Shown one piece after another: positions 20,431 to 29,095 of a stretch of DNA of 36,755 nucleotides. Under the pieces are notes generated by a model. It was not told the origin of the DNA and did not search any database. It was given only the letters and a program-made list of their open reading frames with translations. This DNA is from a virus (taxonomy: Duplodnaviria > Heunggongvirae > Uroviricota > Caudoviricetes). The translations under genes were made by a program, and so were the position numbers. The stretch lies in IMG/VR virus record IMGVR_UViG_2778261460_000001, positions 1 through 36,755 of that record. One strand, written 5' to 3'. Numbering within the stretch: position 1 is the stretch's first letter; each line of letters begins with the position of its first letter.

Positions 20431-20462
20431 TCCAGAAAAGCAAAAACCCCGCCGAAGCGAGG
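20431..20462 (-). terminator. tR'-like terminator downstream of the late promoter
   Basis: On the minus strand: stem CCTCGC / GCGGGG (one G-U pair) with a TTCG tetraloop, followed by a UUUUUGCUUUUCU tract. Located between the Q-like gene and the first late gene. Confidence 0.45.
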
Positions 20463-20572
20463 TTTGTTATGATTTCGTTAACGGCAGACATACAAAGCCC
20501 ATCGTTAGGAGAATCCTAACCATATTTTTTGAAAAATGCAAGCATCATGTCGCCATCTTCGGCGAAAATCAT

Positions 20573-23931: not shown

Positions 23932-24524
23932 GCGTTAGTTTCTCCACAGTCACGACACGCCACGGCGCCCGGAGCTGCACACTCGCGGGCGTCATTACTT
24001 TCTGAAATGCAAAAGATTTTGTAGACCAGTGCTGCATGCTCCTGCAGCTTCGAAATTGAGAGATACAGCTCGTCGTTAATTGCTGTCTTCTCATGCGGTT
24101 CCACCACACCGTCTTCGATTGCCGAACGAATCTGTCTGGAATAACTGCCAATCTGTTCAATGACTTCCAGCAGGCGCTGGTTAATATCGGCGTTGTCCAC
24201 ATCCTCGACGTCAGGAAGAGACACAAAGACGCCATTTGCAGACTGCGCCACAGCGTCAGCAATGAAGTGAGTTCCACCAGCACGTTGCAAAATCATTGCC
24301 CATCCCAGCGGGAAAATCTGATCGCCATCGGCACGAAGGCGGTTAAATAATGCGTTTTCTGTTACATCCAGCCAGTCAGCTGCTTCAGCGTAACCACCCG
24401 GCAACGCTGCGATAGTTTTTCTGACAGCTTTCACGTACCACTCAGGCTGTTTTTCTACTTTCCAGTGATGCTTACCCACGGTTAGCCTCATCGTTCTGTG
24501 GTTTCTGTTAATCGATTTATCCAT
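23928..24524 (-). CDS. CII-like phage regulatory protein (CP76-like, about 198 aa)
   Basis: Start revised to ATG 24524 (or 24536), just after the cro stop at 24517; the track start at 24593 would overlap cro by 77 nt. Call is positional (immediately downstream of cro). Confidence 0.4.
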
Positions 24525-24717
24525 TAGATTTTTCATAAAGCTCAGGTTTAAATGGCAACCGTCCGCAAGTTCTATATGCAGCTTCTGCTGCACGTCCTTT
24601 TGGAATTAACTGGCCCGGACGGTTTCGCCACTGATAAACGGCTTCAGTTGTTATGCCGAAAAAAGCAGCAACTTTCTCAATACTGCCGAAGTAGCTTTCG
24701 ATATCGTCAGTTGTCAT
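24517..24717 (-). CDS. Cro-like repressor (HTH DNA-binding protein)
   Basis: 66-aa ORF divergent from the CI-like repressor, with a GGAGGG Shine-Dalgarno upstream and an HTH-like segment (…VAAFFGITTEAVYQWRN…). Confidence 0.65.
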   Translation of the reverse strand: MTTDDIESYFGSIEKVAAFFGITTEAVYQWRNRPGQLIPKGRAAEAAYRTCGRLPFKPELYEKSNG

Positions 24718-24814
24718 ACGCCCTCCAAACTAAGTTTTATTAGATGCTAATTACAAATCTATCTTTGGTCAATAAAAACTAAGATTACTTAGCAATTCAA
24801 GAAATGGTGCTCCT
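24718..24814. promoter_or_regulatory. Divergent immunity-region promoter/operator region (OR-like)
   Basis: 97-bp AT-rich spacer between divergent cro and cI. Contains a perfect palindrome CTAAGATTACTTAG (24779-24792), a related site ACTAAGTTTTATTAG (24729-24743), and a TTGACC -35-like hexamer on the cro strand. Confidence 0.5.
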
Positions 24815-25441
24815 ATGGAAACGGTTGGTCAGCGTATAAAAGCTCTGAGAAGAGTTACCGGAACGTCCCAGAAAGAATTGGGTAAATTTTGTGGAGTAAG
24901 CGACGTTGCTGTGGGGTACTGGGAGAAAGACATCAATACCCCTGGTGGGGAGGCACTTTCGAAATTAGCGAAGTTCTTCAATACGTCAATAGATTACATT
25001 CTTTATGGTGCTGAGTTTGAAGGCAAACTCGTCACAAACATGCGCAGAGTTCCTGTAATATCGTGGGTTCAGGCTGGGCAGTTTACTGAGTGCAGGGCAG
25101 CAGAAGTGTTTAGTGAAGTGGACAAGTGGGTAGATACATCATTAAAGATTGGTGATAACTCATTTGCATTAGAGGTTAAAGGTGACTCCATGACTAACCC
25201 TAATGGCCTCCCAACAATACCAGAAGGCGCAACAGTGATTGTAGATCCAGATGCAGAACCTCGTCATGGAAAAATAGTCATCGCTCGACTTGATGGAACA
25301 AACGAAGCTACAGTAAAAAAATTAGTCATCGATGGCCCTCAAAAGTTTTTAGTGCCATTAAATCCTCGGTATCCCAACATCCCTATCAATGGTAATTGCC
25401 TTATCATTGGTGTAGTCAAAGGAGTTCAATACGAACTCTAA
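24815..25441 (+). CDS. CI-like prophage repressor (HTH plus LexA/S24 peptidase domain)
   Basis: 208-aa ORF with an N-terminal HTH (…QKELGKFCGVSDVAVGYWEKD…) and a C-terminal S24 autocleavage domain with Ser-Lys dyad context (…EVKGDSMTNP…ATVKKLV…). Confidence 0.85.
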   Translation: METVGQRIKALRRVTGTSQKELGKFCGVSDVAVGYWEKDINTPGGEALSKLAKFFNTSIDYILYGAEFEGKLVTNMRRVPVISWVQAGQFTECRAAEVFSEVDKWVDTSLKIGDNSFALEVKGDSMTNPNGLPTIPEGATVIVDPDAEPRHGKIVIARLDGTNEATVKKLVIDGPQKFLVPLNPRYPNIPINGNCLIIGVVKGVQYEL

Positions 25442-25647
25442 GACCTCTCTTCTCTAACTAAGGCACCGAACTAAGAAAAGCTTGGTGTTTTCTCTTGCCA
25501 TAATAACTAAGTTAAGTTAGATTTTATATCAAAGATAACGAACAGGCAGGACGCCCACGAAGTAGCCGCCTGGGGCATATGAAGTCCAGGATGATTCGTT
25601 GAGTCATGTTGTGCCACCAGGCACTCATGTTAAAGCAGGTGTATGAA

Positions 25648-25923
25648 ATGAAAGTCCAGATTTTAAACAATAACTGTGAAGTCGTTTGGTCATACGACAT
25701 AGCCGCCCCTGTAGATCAGAGCGGCGATAGCTGGACCAATGGGAAACATCAGATTATGGCTGGAGTTGTGTTCTCTTTACGCCGTGCTTTGGAACAGGCT
25801 GAAGTATTTCCATCAGACCCTGAATGGAAATGGCCTTTTTCTATTTGTCCAAATTCGGAGAGCACATTTCAGAAAATTGGTCAGAAAGTCGCACTCGAAG
25901 AGCATCAGCCAACTGTTTCCTGA
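25648..25923 (+). CDS. Hypothetical early-left protein
   Basis: ATG at 25648 with AGGTG 6 nt upstream (the track ORF begins at 25606). The 3' end overlaps a convergent ORF. Confidence 0.3.
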   Translation: MKVQILNNNCEVVWSYDIAAPVDQSGDSWTNGKHQIMAGVVFSLRRALEQAEVFPSDPEWKWPFSICPNSESTFQKIGQKVALEEHQPTVS

Positions 25924-26086
25924 TTTTTTCAGGTAACTCGTCGGCATCGCAGAAACAACAACGCTCGATCATGTTGAAAGCCGATTCGTAGAACTGTTTC
26001 TGCTGAGTGTCGCTGAGACAGGAAAAGAGCGACGTTACGATGATTTTATTAATTGCATTATCAAGTTCTTTTTCATCAAAAGTCAT
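25841..26086 (-). CDS. Hypothetical protein (AT-rich, convergent)
   Basis: 81-aa ORF with an AGGAAA Shine-Dalgarno upstream of the ATG at 26086 and low GC; its 3' end overlaps the plus-strand ORF by 83 nt. Confidence 0.3.
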   Translation of the reverse strand: MTFDEKELDNAINKIIVTSLFSCLSDTQQKQFYESAFNMIERCCFCDADELPEKIRKQLADALRVRLSDQFSEMCSPNLDK

Positions 26087-26600
26087 TTGATTTTCCTTTT
26101 ATGTATACGGGCTTAAAAGGATACCACCGAGCCTGAAGTGGTGAAAAGACAGGCACATAACAGCTAAGTATTTTCAACCAGAGAGAATCCTTAGCGTTGT
26201 GGTGAATGCGGCTCAGCGCACGCGGGTTAAGGTTGAGGCTGACAGTCGACCTTCTGTGGATACCCACCCGCCTGGTGTGCAACCTTCGCCAGGCACCGGG
26301 AGGCACCCGGCACCACAACTTTATGCTGAGTGTAGTCCTGGCGGTACCAGCTTGTACCCTTGCTTCCGGCTGGTACCGTCCTTTTTACAAAACAGAGAAG
26401 AGCATCACCGGACGACGGGCTCATAACCCAATCCATCCGGGCGGCGGTCACCGCAGGTGTTCTTCTCTGTTTTGTGGAGAAACTAACCGCCCCTGCGGGG
26501 GCATTTATGGAAATGTAATTGACTCAATAATCGCCGGACGGTGAGGGCTTCCTTTTACCCGAATTCAGCGCGGTGCAGCGCATATAACGTGGAGAACAAA

Positions 26601-27137
26601 ATGTCATTTATTAAAACTTTTTCCGGGAAGCATTTTTTTTATGACCGGATAAATAAAGACAACATCGATATTAACGATATCGCGGTTTCACTTTCAAATA
26701 TCTGCCGCTTTGCAGGACATCTTTCACACTTCTACAGCGTCGCCCAACATGCGGTGCTTTGCAGCCAGCTGGTACCGCACGAATTTGCTTTTGAAGCATT
26801 AATGCATGATGCAACAGAAGCGTATTGCCAGGACATCCCCGCTCCACTGAAACACCTTCTTCCTGACTATAAACGGATGGAAGAAAAAATAGACGCCGTA
26901 ATCCGTGAGAAATACGGGTTACCCCCGGTTATGAGTACACCCGTGAAATATGCCGATCTCATCATGCTGGCAACCGAACGCCGCGATCTCGGGCTTGATG
27001 ATGGCTCTTTCTGGCCTGTGCTGGAAGGTATCCCGGCAACAGAGATGTTCAACGTGATTCCACTGGCTCCAGGCCATGCCTACGGGATGTTTATGGAACG
27101 CTTTAACGAATTATCGGAGTTACGCAAATGCGCATGA
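26601..27137 (+). CDS. HD-domain phosphohydrolase
   Basis: Start revised to ATG 26601 with GGAG 6 nt upstream. Contains H…HD metal-binding motifs (…SVAQHAVLCS…EALMHDATEAYCQD…). Confidence 0.65.
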   Translation: MSFIKTFSGKHFFYDRINKDNIDINDIAVSLSNICRFAGHLSHFYSVAQHAVLCSQLVPHEFAFEALMHDATEAYCQDIPAPLKHLLPDYKRMEEKIDAVIREKYGLPPVMSTPVKYADLIMLATERRDLGLDDGSFWPVLEGIPATEMFNVIPLAPGHAYGMFMERFNELSELRKCA

Positions 27138-27749: not shown

Positions 27750-27968
27750 GTGGAGAAACATATGCTGAACCTCGATTGTGTTCCTATCTCAACTTATTGC
27801 AAAGAAACTGGCGAAACTCCTGAAGCAATAAACAAACGTGTACAGCGCGGTGTTTGGCGTGAAGGTGTTCAGGTTTTAAAGGTTGAAGGCGTTAAGGAGA
27901 GGTGGATTGATCTTAGTGAGGTTGCAAAATGGGCCAGACAAAACTGCTCAAACTACCGCGCGGCGTAA
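27750..27968 (+). CDS. Excisionase-like protein (putative Xis)
   Basis: 72-aa ORF immediately upstream of and overlapping the integrase start. Confidence 0.45.
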   Translation: MEKHMLNLDCVPISTYCKETGETPEAINKRVQRGVWREGVQVLKVEGVKERWIDLSEVAKWARQNCSNYRAA

Positions 27969-29095
27969 CAATCAGGAAACACCGCCAGGGCGAAACGATC
28001 AATATAACTTTCACCTACAAAGGTGTTAAATGTCGTGAGCCTCTTTCCAATCTGGAAGTAACACCAAAGAACATTAAATACGCCGAGCGCACACTCGGCG
28101 AAATTCATAATAAGATCGAAAGGGGAACATTCATTTATGCGGAATATTTTCCCCGTTCTGCTCGTTTGAAAATTTTTGGTAATGCTGCTGCAGGCAAAAC
28201 GGTAAAAATGTACCTGGACGAATACCTTGAAATCTGCGAAACGAGAAAACTTTCACCCTCTACGATTGGTGGCTATAAAAAATGCCGTAGTGCGTTAGCC
28301 TCACTTCACATTTGCCCTGCAAGTGAATTAACACCAGCAACCCTGAAAGCGTGGATTCAAAATCAGAAAACGACCTTAAAAACAATTCGCAACCAGTTAT
28401 CTTTCCTGCGGTCAGCACTTGATGAAGCCGTGACCGATGGGGTACTTCAAATTAACCCCGTATCGTTAGTAACAGCTTCGCGCTACCAAAGTGATAAGTC
28501 AGAAGCAGAAAGCAGCTACGTAGTTGATCCGCTATCACCAGCAGAAGTTGATGCATTACTAGCAGCAGCCGGAAACAAACAATGGGAAAATCTGTTCCGG
28601 TTCGCTATACATACAGGCCTGCGTAGTTCTGAATTATGTGCCCTTCGATGGCGTGATATCGACTTTGTTGGAAAAACTGCCCATGTCCAGAGCGCAAGTG
28701 TTGTCGGTGTTATCAAAGGGACAAAGACAAAAGCAGGTACTCGGAAAGTTGAACTGACAGAAGAGGCAATGTTGGCGCTGATAAATCAGAAGCCATTTAC
28801 ATTCATGAAGGATACTACTGTCTTTGAAGATCCAAAGACCAATAAGCCTTGGGCAAGTGCTGATGCAATTAGGAAAAAAGCATGGGTGCCAACATTGCGA
28901 AAAGCAGGTATTCGTTACAGAAACCCATATCAAACCAGGCATACATTCGCCACCAGCCATATCAGCCGAGGAGCAAACCTGTTTTGGCTTGCAGCTCAAA
29001 TGGGGCATAAAGGGCCGGAGATGCTTTTCAGGCACTATGGTCGATATCTCAAAGAATACGACGGAAAAAGCTCCATCAAATACATTATACAATGA
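27929..29095 (+). CDS. Tyrosine integrase (lambda Int family)
   Basis: 388-aa ORF with the catalytic R…H-x-x-R…Y tetrad context (…HTGLRSSELCALRWRDID…, …RHTFATSHISRGANLFWLAAQMGHKGPEMLFRHYGRYL…). Confidence 0.85.
   Translation: MGQTKLLKLPRGVTIRKHRQGETINITFTYKGVKCREPLSNLEVTPKNIKYAERTLGEIHNKIERGTFIYAEYFPRSARLKIFGNAAAGKTVKMYLDEYLEICETRKLSPSTIGGYKKCRSALASLHICPASELTPATLKAWIQNQKTTLKTIRNQLSFLRSALDEAVTDGVLQINPVSLVTASRYQSDKSEAESSYVVDPLSPAEVDALLAAAGNKQWENLFRFAIHTGLRSSELCALRWRDIDFVGKTAHVQSASVVGVIKGTKTKAGTRKVELTEEAMLALINQKPFTFMKDTTVFEDPKTNKPWASADAIRKKAWVPTLRKAGIRYRNPYQTRHTFATSHISRGANLFWLAAQMGHKGPEMLFRHYGRYLKEYDGKSSIKYIIQ

Follow-up and report, generated by a model that had tools for sequence, protein, structure and literature searches.

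Two RNA modules in the early-left operon of an SfV/SfII-like prophage: a probable divergent STnc100/PasD-type small RNA followed by a structure resembling the initiator tRNA anticodon arm

The STnc100 and PasD RNAs are prophage small RNAs that have come to light in pathogenic Escherichia coli. STnc100 is present in 11 copies in EDL933 and one of these, STnc100_4, has been confirmed by Northern blot in enterohaemorrhagic E. coli (PMC5331693). PasD1 and PasD2 of enteropathogenic E. coli (EPEC) depend on Hfq for their stability and have partners identified by RIL-seq (PMC8550237), and PasD and STnc100 are reported to be related in both structure and ancestry (Zhu, Shabalina and Storz, bioRxiv 10.64898/2026.05.13.724894). 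Among RNA pairs found on CsrA, the one that joins PasD2 to the yjbJ 3′ untranslated region is the most abundant (bioRxiv 10.64898/2026.08.12.744399). Here, we analyzed a 36,755-nucleotide (nt) stretch of viral DNA, IMG/VR record IMGVR_UViG_2778261460_000001 (the window, meaning the whole stretch, whose coordinates we use throughout). It is an SfV/SfII/SKA5-like lambdoid prophage, with 97.5-98.2% identity over the region of interest, a GC-rich segment upstream of the gene yfdR. This region is RNA and not protein: it contains two RNA modules, encoded on the plus strand within the early-left operon. We conclude with high confidence that the first, module A (26163-26386), is a divergent STnc100/PasD-family prophage small RNA with its own terminator. 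The second, module B, is a three-way junction that carries a likeness of the initiator tRNA anticodon arm.

The identity of module A rests on two covariance models. A scan of the window against Rfam at gathering thresholds returned no match. In a relaxed scan, 26166-26389 of the plus strand aligned to STnc100 (RF02076) over its full length (positions 1-206 of 206) with a sub-threshold score of 43.2 bits and an E value of 6.9e-8; other Rfam families in the region gave only noise, and no tRNA or tmRNA was found in the window. The alignment places GGTACCAGC, a hairpin already singled out in an initial annotation of this DNA, at the STnc100 terminator, and the window carries the motifs GGUGAAU and ACCGGGAGGCACCCGGCACCA, identical to STnc100. 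We then searched viral contigs with the exact motif CCGGGAGGCACCCGGCACCA, which retrieved at least 120 loci whose cores form 31 clusters below 88% identity, and a covariance model, R1, was built on an alignment (A1) of 29 representatives including the window copy. R1 scores the window 75.5 bits (E 7e-16) at 26195-26321, a value somewhat inflated by the presence of the window copy in the seed; L006 and L008, which are near-identical to that copy and outside the seed, likewise score 75.5 bits. R1 also recovers copies that do not carry the exact search motif. The canonical copies that it finds exceed the Rfam STnc100 threshold (68-154 bits) and the window-type relatives L015 and L091 fail it. Thus, the window element is a genuine divergent subtype that the Rfam model misses. 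The relation to PasD is indirect, by way of STnc100. PasD1 and PasD2 of EPEC E2348/69 are likewise prophage intergenic RNAs with a reported common structure and ancestry, although their place is in the late region, close to Q and lpxR, and they are expressed in lysogens.

The family core is a pseudoknotted fold of five helices; it covaries strongly, and its ACCGGGAGGCACCCGGCACCA hairpin is nearly invariant across Enterobacterales prophages. Helix P1 pairs a 5′ GUGGUG with a 3′ CACCAC. After its 5′ strand come AAU, P2, a short junction and the first (5′) strand of the pseudoknot; the variable hairpin P3 and a junction containing GCG lead on to P4, whose loop supplies the second (3′) pseudoknot strand, and after one A the core ends with P5 and the 3′ strand of P1. 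In a set of 100 distinct sequences, pairing within the nested helices reaches 97.4%, with 15 of the 23 pairs changed on both sides. The covariation score is 0.333, compared with 0.03-0.12 when partners are slid, and none of 500 shuffles reached it. The alignment was not fitted to the pseudoknot, and all six of its pairs are compensated, in 9-19 sequences each. An independent parse yielded 38 distinct pairs of pseudoknot strands, among them CCAGUC/GACUGG, CUGGUGU/ACACCGG, AUCAGCG/UGCUGGU, ACUGGAU/AUCCAGU and AGACUGACAAA/UUUGUCAGUCU, and runs of at least 6 base pairs (bp) occur in 75% of cores as against 22% after partners are swapped between sequences. P1 also covaries (GUGAUG/CAUCAC, UGGCG/CGCCA), and P5 together with the 3′ strand of P1 is almost invariant, also among copies retrieved independently of that motif. 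With one genome scanned per species, the 21-mer of this hairpin segment was found at at least 120 places in Escherichia, Shigella, Klebsiella, Raoultella, Enterobacter, Kosakonia, Phytobacter, Trabulsiella, Superficieibacter, Buttiauxella, Citrobacter, Leclercia, Kluyvera, Pantoea and Erwinia.

P1, P2, P4, P5 and the pseudoknot can all form in the window sequence, and the window shares these four helices with STnc100, along with the terminal intrinsic terminator and the prophage location. The pseudoknot itself is not part of the Rfam STnc100 model. Unlike STnc100, the window copy offers the 5′ strand of its pseudoknot a local alternative partner at 26246-26253; in the 78% identical relative L035 this alternative is degraded and the pseudoknot partner is kept. 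The two also differ in setting, since the window copy has no convincing promoter of its own and lies in the early-left operon, not in a late-gene leader or downstream of stx. The terminator stems covary in the relatives L134 and L197.

The pattern of conservation follows the fold. Mismatches per site, computed among relatives at least 88% identical, are low from about 26160 to the end of the core (0.001-0.017) and higher on both sides (Table 1). Mosaic breakpoints cluster at 26120-26124, 26339, 26489 and 26500. Together, the profile and the breakpoints indicate that the functional unit is the fold itself. The limits of 26200-26540 given in the initial annotation are therefore slightly narrow at the 5′ end.

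That annotation had been drawn to the region by its composition and its inverted repeats, and both observations are accurate. GC content is 0.53-0.58 in 200-nt intervals over 26100-26599, compared with 0.39-0.47 in both flanks, and all three of the repeats it named are present. CGGTACCAGC/GCTGGTACCG (26342-26351/26369-26378) is fully complementary over 10 nt; the perfect pair ACAGAGAAGA/TCTTCTCTGT lies within 25-nt arms (26387-26411/26451-26475) that are 84% complementary; and the third is the small GC hairpin that follows module B. Two repeats that were overlooked are more informative. The perfect 9-nt pair GTTGTGGTG/CACCACAAC (26196-26204/26311-26319), enclosing 106 nt, is the helix that closes the core, and 13-nt arms at 26163-26175/26183-26195 form the hairpin in front of it. 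Folding of the first half is strand-specific: for 26163-26390 the plus strand has a minimum free energy (MFE) of -96.4 kcal/mol and a z-score of -4.38, with none of 200 shuffles as good, and the minus strand a z-score of -1.79. For 26386-26545 the z-scores are -4.71 (plus) and -4.16 (minus), and the 91-nt hairpin of module B by itself reaches -7.46.

Elsewhere the family takes the form of self-contained gene cassettes. In about 35 of 112 distinct contexts a sigma-70 promoter (TTGAnn-17/18-TAnnnT) precedes the core, with 7 nt between the end of its -10 hexamer and a position 4 nt inside the model; this puts the start of transcription at about the first base of P1. Most of the 112 contexts have an intrinsic terminator ending 42-57 nt past P1. 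Tandem arrays contain three to five complete units about 250 nt apart (L022 342-1038, L030 1724-3286, L067 4378-5462 and L013 2323-3352), and a tRNA gene follows the array of L022. In Klebsiella phages the cassette sits between the Q gene and the holin gene, downstream of a separate Q-proximal promoter-terminator unit that Rfam identifies as IsrJ, and in a Stx2a phage it follows stxB at a distance of about 100 nt, consistent with a published account (PMC12370729). Across 301 distinct contexts the nearest downstream open reading frames (ORFs) belong to 85 protein clusters and the nearest upstream ORFs to 109. We therefore rejected a fixed partner gene; such diversity of neighbors is the mark of a self-contained, moron-like RNA gene and not of a regulator dedicated to one downstream gene. 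A link to the Q antiterminator was also rejected: the leader of the window's own Q gene (PF03589) does not contain the element, and in the Klebsiella phage L126 the short RNA next to Q is IsrJ, with the cassette a separate unit. The family is reminiscent of lambda 6S RNA, StxS and IsrJ, small RNAs that arise by intrinsic termination in a phage operon that is read through in lytic growth, and in L126 an IsrJ-type PR′-tR′ RNA lies just upstream of the STnc100 cassette. However, those RNAs are Q-responsive promoter-proximal transcripts, whereas the cassette is a separate downstream unit with a far more elaborate conserved fold.

Several variants of this scaffold deserve mention. Phages of the Stx2a_1447 type have the P1 strands, terminator and module B of the window around a different interior (L002 3854-3991), which R1 scores at only 15.9 bits. 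In this interior the loops of P2 and P5 complement each other (GGCUGAU/AUCAGCC), pointing to a kissing-loop form of the scaffold. Upstream of it, the early-left leader (L002 3700-3850) contains the T-arm-like strings GGTTCAATTCC and GGTCCGTTCGATTCGGAC, in which ARAGORN finds no tRNA and which may be decayed tRNA genes. On the minus strand of the same phage (L002 1268-1456), matches to C4 antisense RNA and IsrK lie beside the antirepressor gene, a P1/P7-like immunity module in a lambdoid Stx phage. Finally, in phage lambda the stretch between tR′ and S (44856-44904; L129 1057-1105), GTTGTGCTGAATTAAGCGAATACCGGAAGCAGAACCGGATCACCAAAT, resembles a collapsed STnc100-type core, with P1 strands, an L2-like AAGCGAA and a P5-like ACCGG...CCGG hairpin; R1 gives no match there at E <= 1, and the likeness could be due to chance.

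Module B follows the terminator of module A directly. Its arm ends in GGGCUCAUAACCC, a 13-nt stem-loop of three G-C pairs and the loop CUCAUAA that is identical to the tip of the tRNA-fMet anticodon arm; the further GC-rich hairpin that the initial annotation placed inside the long inverted repeat is in fact this look-alike. GGGCUCAUAACCC is invariant in 127 copies except for C or U at one position. At least 120 viral contigs contain the 23-nt string that surrounds it, in two configurations. In Type 1, to which the window belongs, it always stands directly behind the terminator U-tract in early-left leaders, and its closing stems are compensated in L134 and L197. Type 2, the form of Klebsiella-type phages, combines an acceptor-like stem of 6 bp with a long arm bearing a CAU anticodon-like loop, a small hairpin and a 3′ NCCA, and it sits 6 nt past the last gene of a phage tRNA array, as in L136, where an Asn-Phe-Thr-Arg array precedes it. 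Covariation between the types (U-A versus G-C) is seen in the stem at the arm's base. A joint RNAalifold consensus of both (A3) is poor because their closing stems differ in length.

The Type 2 elements are themselves unannotated tRNA-like RNAs (L136 4242-4312 and L126 4439-4508, with others in L131, L143, L205 and L210), and their acceptor-like stem, NCCA and tRNA-like spacing at the ends of arrays liken them to the tRNA-like RNAs of phage tRNA clusters. Module B differs from a tRNA in having neither D arm nor T loop, and the window copy differs from Type 2 in its 21-bp closing stem and the absence of CCA. ARAGORN reports no tRNA in the window or at the module B copies of relatives, no Rfam family, including the tRNA model, matches module B, a metagenome scan for relatives with other anticodons returned chance matches only, and we found no description of module B in the searchable literature. 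We interpret module B as a putative derivative of an unannotated tRNA-like gene, which could serve as a processing site or as a mimic of the initiator anticodon arm.

These findings lead us to favor, as the best explanation overall and with moderate confidence, a scenario in which module A is an STnc100/PasD-type RNA made from the early leftward promoter PL, released by its terminator and active in trans. Because the copy lies inside the early-left unit without a convincing promoter of its own, PL-driven transcription probably makes the folded RNA as the 3′ portion of the orf33-like transcript. The terminator would release the RNA and would also be the first barrier to transcription into yfdR and on to xis-int. 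By analogy with PasD and Hfq and with PasD2 and CsrA, the released RNA may act in trans through RNA-binding proteins. The folded core with its invariant P5 is conserved and the linker is not, which argues that the core is a scaffold for binding a protein or other partner and not a simple seed. Transcripts that read through would form module B, plausibly an RNA-processing site. As a mode of action this proposal is evenly poised between right and wrong. The initial annotation had named a small RNA or a leader as alternatives; homology to the STnc100/PasD family supports the first, and a leader acting in cis is a less likely rival.

Several observations weigh against this scenario. The 43.2-bit score of the window copy misses the STnc100 gathering threshold of 47 bits, its P2 (UGCG-GCUCAG-CGCA) replaces the CCCCU-GUGCGG-AGGGG of STnc100, and it has an extra GCGGGU/ACCCGC helix. 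No plus-strand promoter with at least 9 of 12 matches lies between 25524 and 26600, and the best candidate, AAGACA-17-TATTTT (8 of 12), is not kept in relatives; because no good promoter was found, we can only infer that the window copy yields a discrete RNA. Conservation is lowest in the linker, where a seed would be expected. In P2, the GGA is not kept across the family, so a two-site CsrA ligand is not a family feature, and we rejected that idea. A near-invariant hairpin and a covarying pseudoknot maintained over many genera are atypical of seed-pairing small RNAs, and the activity could be one not yet described.

The rival that survives best, which we nevertheless consider unlikely, is a purely cis-acting leader. 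In such a leader the terminator, a substrate for RNase III or RNase P formed by module B (26386-26476) and the small GC hairpin behind it attenuate or process the early-left transcript before yfdR-xis-int, and the STnc100-like fold is a passenger or a stabilizing 5′ structure. It is consistent with the position of the element inside the PL operon without its own promoter, with the covariation of the terminator stems and the closing stem, and with the joint travel of the block 26339-26500 (terminator, long hairpin and small hairpin) behind a different core in many Stx2-, Stx2c- and mEp460-type phages. However, the core and not the terminator is the most conserved part, and the same core is an independent cassette in hundreds of unrelated contexts. 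This explanation is compatible with the trans-acting RNA that we favor and does not exclude it.

A more speculative idea, which we hold to be rather improbable, is that the core is not a seed-pairing small RNA but a pseudoknotted RNA that docks through P5 on a conserved protein of the cell or the phage, for instance CsrA, or on another machine, and that module B is a decoy or sensor based on the fMet anticodon arm, or a substrate of tRNA enzymes. Lambdoid phages would then deploy the core both as free-standing cassettes and inside early and late leaders. The enzymes decoyed or sensed could be, for example, the VapC-type anticodon nucleases of Shigella and Salmonella; alternatively, module B could be excised from the leader by tRNA-processing enzymes.

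The architecture of the core, in which P1 closes a junction of several helices with a loop-to-junction pseudoknot and invariant junction nucleotides and a terminator comes within 20-60 nt, also invites comparison with riboswitches and protein-sensing leaders, in which the junction would be an aptamer whose ligand decides whether the adjacent terminator forms. We find this quite unlikely: the downstream genes, in 85 clusters among 261 contexts, do not form a consistent class, complete promoter-RNA-terminator units are arranged in tandem, inspection by eye reveals no conserved antiterminator pairing, and terminator sequences are unrelated between subtypes.

The initial annotation raised the possibility of a put-like antitermination RNA, in which the nascent transcript binds RNA polymerase, allows read-through of downstream terminators and replaces N. 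Its remark that the phage has no recognizable N agrees with our results, as the early-left ORFs tested have no N-family Pfam match and no boxA consensus was found within 15 kb of the region. Like putL and putR of the N-less phage HK022, the element is a cis-encoded structured RNA in the early operon of a lambdoid phage, downstream of a PL candidate, and its fold and invariant nucleotides are what one would expect of an RNA that docks on a conserved machine. Canonical transcripts of the family start at the first base of the fold, as putL does (PMC9378689). Despite these parallels we regard antitermination of this kind as very unlikely. The HK022 elements are about 70 nt, with two stem-loops and no terminator of their own, and the read-through that they cause depends on the zinc-binding domain of the RNA polymerase beta′ subunit. 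They occur in two copies, at PL and PR, whereas the window has a single copy of the P5 motif (at up to 2 mismatches) and none in its early-right operon. Its element lies about 640 nt from the PL candidate, unlike the adjacent putL, and is directly followed by its own terminator. Nor is there similarity of sequence or model: the best blastn match to putL in the region, GCGGGTT.AGG.TGA at 26215-26236, has E = 10, a chance level shared by dozens of matches elsewhere in the window, and R1 does not match the PL-putL locus of HK022. Canonical copies have constitutive-looking promoters, end at efficient terminators and are in places the immediate upstream neighbors of lysis genes; constitutive read-through into those genes would be harmful, which makes a put-like role doubtful. 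Family members are present, too, in Stx phages that encode N. P5, with a 5-bp stem and a 5-nt loop, also resembles lambda boxB; its loop AGGCA is not GNRA-like as in boxB. Relatives have been seen as discrete terminated RNAs (PMC5331693, PMC8550237).

The chance that the 112-codon ORF 26206-26544 is a real gene is negligible: it is uninterrupted in the window and several relatives and annotated in SfII (as a hypothetical protein) and SKA5, yet several relatives 95-99% identical have stops at codons 7, 17, 28, 73, 75 or 93 or indels of +1 or +7, in an E. coli prophage of 99.8% identity it is marked as a frameshifted pseudogene by the Prokaryotic Genome Annotation Pipeline (PGAP), homology ends inside it at 26500 in about half of relatives, 13 indels of 1-4 nt are spread over it in a relative of 78% identity, its 60 variable sites show no bias by codon position (21/16/23 at positions 1/2/3) and it has no Pfam match, so that we rejected a coding reading, found no conserved frame in relatives and agree with the original impression that the ORFs here are not protein-like.

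The modules lie between a cI-like repressor with a PL-like promoter and the early-left genes yfdR to xis-int (Table 1), and the same gene order appears in the published SfV annotation and in PGAP annotations. The candidate PL overlaps an operator-like motif, AACTAAGTTAAGTTAG (25504-25520), that occurs twice more in the gap between cI and cro, at 24727-24743 and 24776-24792, and further AACTAAG copies lie at 25455-25474, near this promoter. These AACTAAG(N)CTTAG-type repeats are probably the repressor operators OR and OL. From this arrangement we infer that the site at 25495-25523 is the PL/OL equivalent and the likely source of transcription through the element, which would therefore lie about 640 nt into the early-left unit, past the first ORF. 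Of the two overlapping ORFs in between, SfV and PGAP annotate the 105-codon one and SfII the 81-codon one, and neither has a Pfam match; if both are real, transcription from PL is antisense to the 81-codon gene.

Table 1. Features of the region and its surroundings in window coordinates, with mismatches per site among relatives where available
Feature	Position	Strand	Basis and remarks
cro-like gene	24517-24717	-	
LexA-family cI-like repressor	24815-25441	+	
Candidate PL equivalent	25495-25523	+	TTGCCA-17-TAGATT; promoter scan; overlaps operator-like AACTAAGTTAAGTTAG motif
105-codon ORF, overlapped by 81-codon ORF	25606-25923 / 25841-26086	+ / -	
Gap	26087-26600		515 nt without a convincing gene
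Upstream flank	26120-26159		0.07-0.08 mismatches/site
5′ hairpin and core	26160-26319		0.001-0.017 mismatches/site
5′ hairpin before core	26163-26195	+	Arms 26163-26175/26183-26195; MFE fold; 0.001-0.014 mismatches/site, conserved like the core
Pseudoknotted core	26196-26319	+	Rfam, R1, family covariation; 0.001-0.017 mismatches/site
P1	26196-26204/26311-26319	+	
P2	26208-26223	+	
Pseudoknot AAGGUUG/CAACCUU	26229-26235/26280-26286	+	
P4	26271-26277/26287-26293	+	
P5 CCGGG-AGGCA-CCCGG	26296-26310	+	
Single-stranded linker	26320-26341	+	Folds; poorly conserved, 0.065 mismatches/site versus <=0.002 for most of core
Linker and 5′ half of terminator	26320-26359		About 0.065 mismatches/site
Intrinsic terminator	26342-26386	+	Perfect 10-bp stem 26342-26351/26369-26378, 17-nt loop, then UCCUUUUU
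Module B three-way junction	26386-26476	+	21-bp closing stem 26386-26406/26456-26476, arm 26408-26440, small hairpin 26441-26454
Arm tip of module B, GGGCUCAUAACCC	26417-26429	+	Identical to E. coli initiator tRNA-fMet anticodon stem-loop (genomic tRNA comparison)
GC hairpin GCCCC-UGC-GGGGC	26489-26502	+	Terminator-like mainly on minus strand; mosaic breakpoint here
yfdR-like HD nucleotidase	26601-27137	+	Followed by DUF551 protein and small ORFs
Integrase	27929-29095	+	

Two further features of the window involve the minus strand. A promoter-like TTGAAA-18-TAATAT lies within yfdR (26668-26697), and the GC hairpin, read on this strand as a terminator (26488-26503), could end a short RNA antisense to the start of yfdR; one relative carries a compensated form of the hairpin, CGACCU-UGCA-GGGUCG. 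At 20440-20560, a promoter-like TTGCAT...TATGGT immediately after the Q gene, followed by the terminator AAACCTCGCTTCGGCGGGGTTTTTGC, is a short PR′-tR′ type leader with no STnc100-like element and no Rfam match. The E. coli K-12 prophage CPS-53 shares yfdR-yfdT with the window and has lost both modules; K-12 data sets are therefore of no help here.

The family to which module A belongs is already known from Rfam and the PasD literature. What appears to be undescribed in searchable sources is the subtype found in the window and its early-left location, together with the covarying pseudoknot, the near-invariance of P5 across Enterobacterales and the tRNA-fMet-like junction. In pathogenic E. coli few prophage transcripts are as abundant as the STnc100/PasD RNAs, which have no established function. 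Their covarying pseudoknot, and a hairpin segment of 21 nt that stays the same from Escherichia through to Pantoea and Erwinia, set the family far above a typical base-pairing small RNA in both structure and conservation. An entire subtype, located in the early-left operon of SfV-, SfII- and Stx2-type phages, escapes the Rfam model. The terminator of this subtype sits at the place that tL1 occupies in N-dependent phages, and thus bears on the control of int and xis in lambdoid phages that lack N. Finally, the mimic of the initiator anticodon arm in module B and the tRNA-like gene at the end of tRNA arrays provide a concrete lead for the debate on phage tRNAs and anticodon-nuclease defence.

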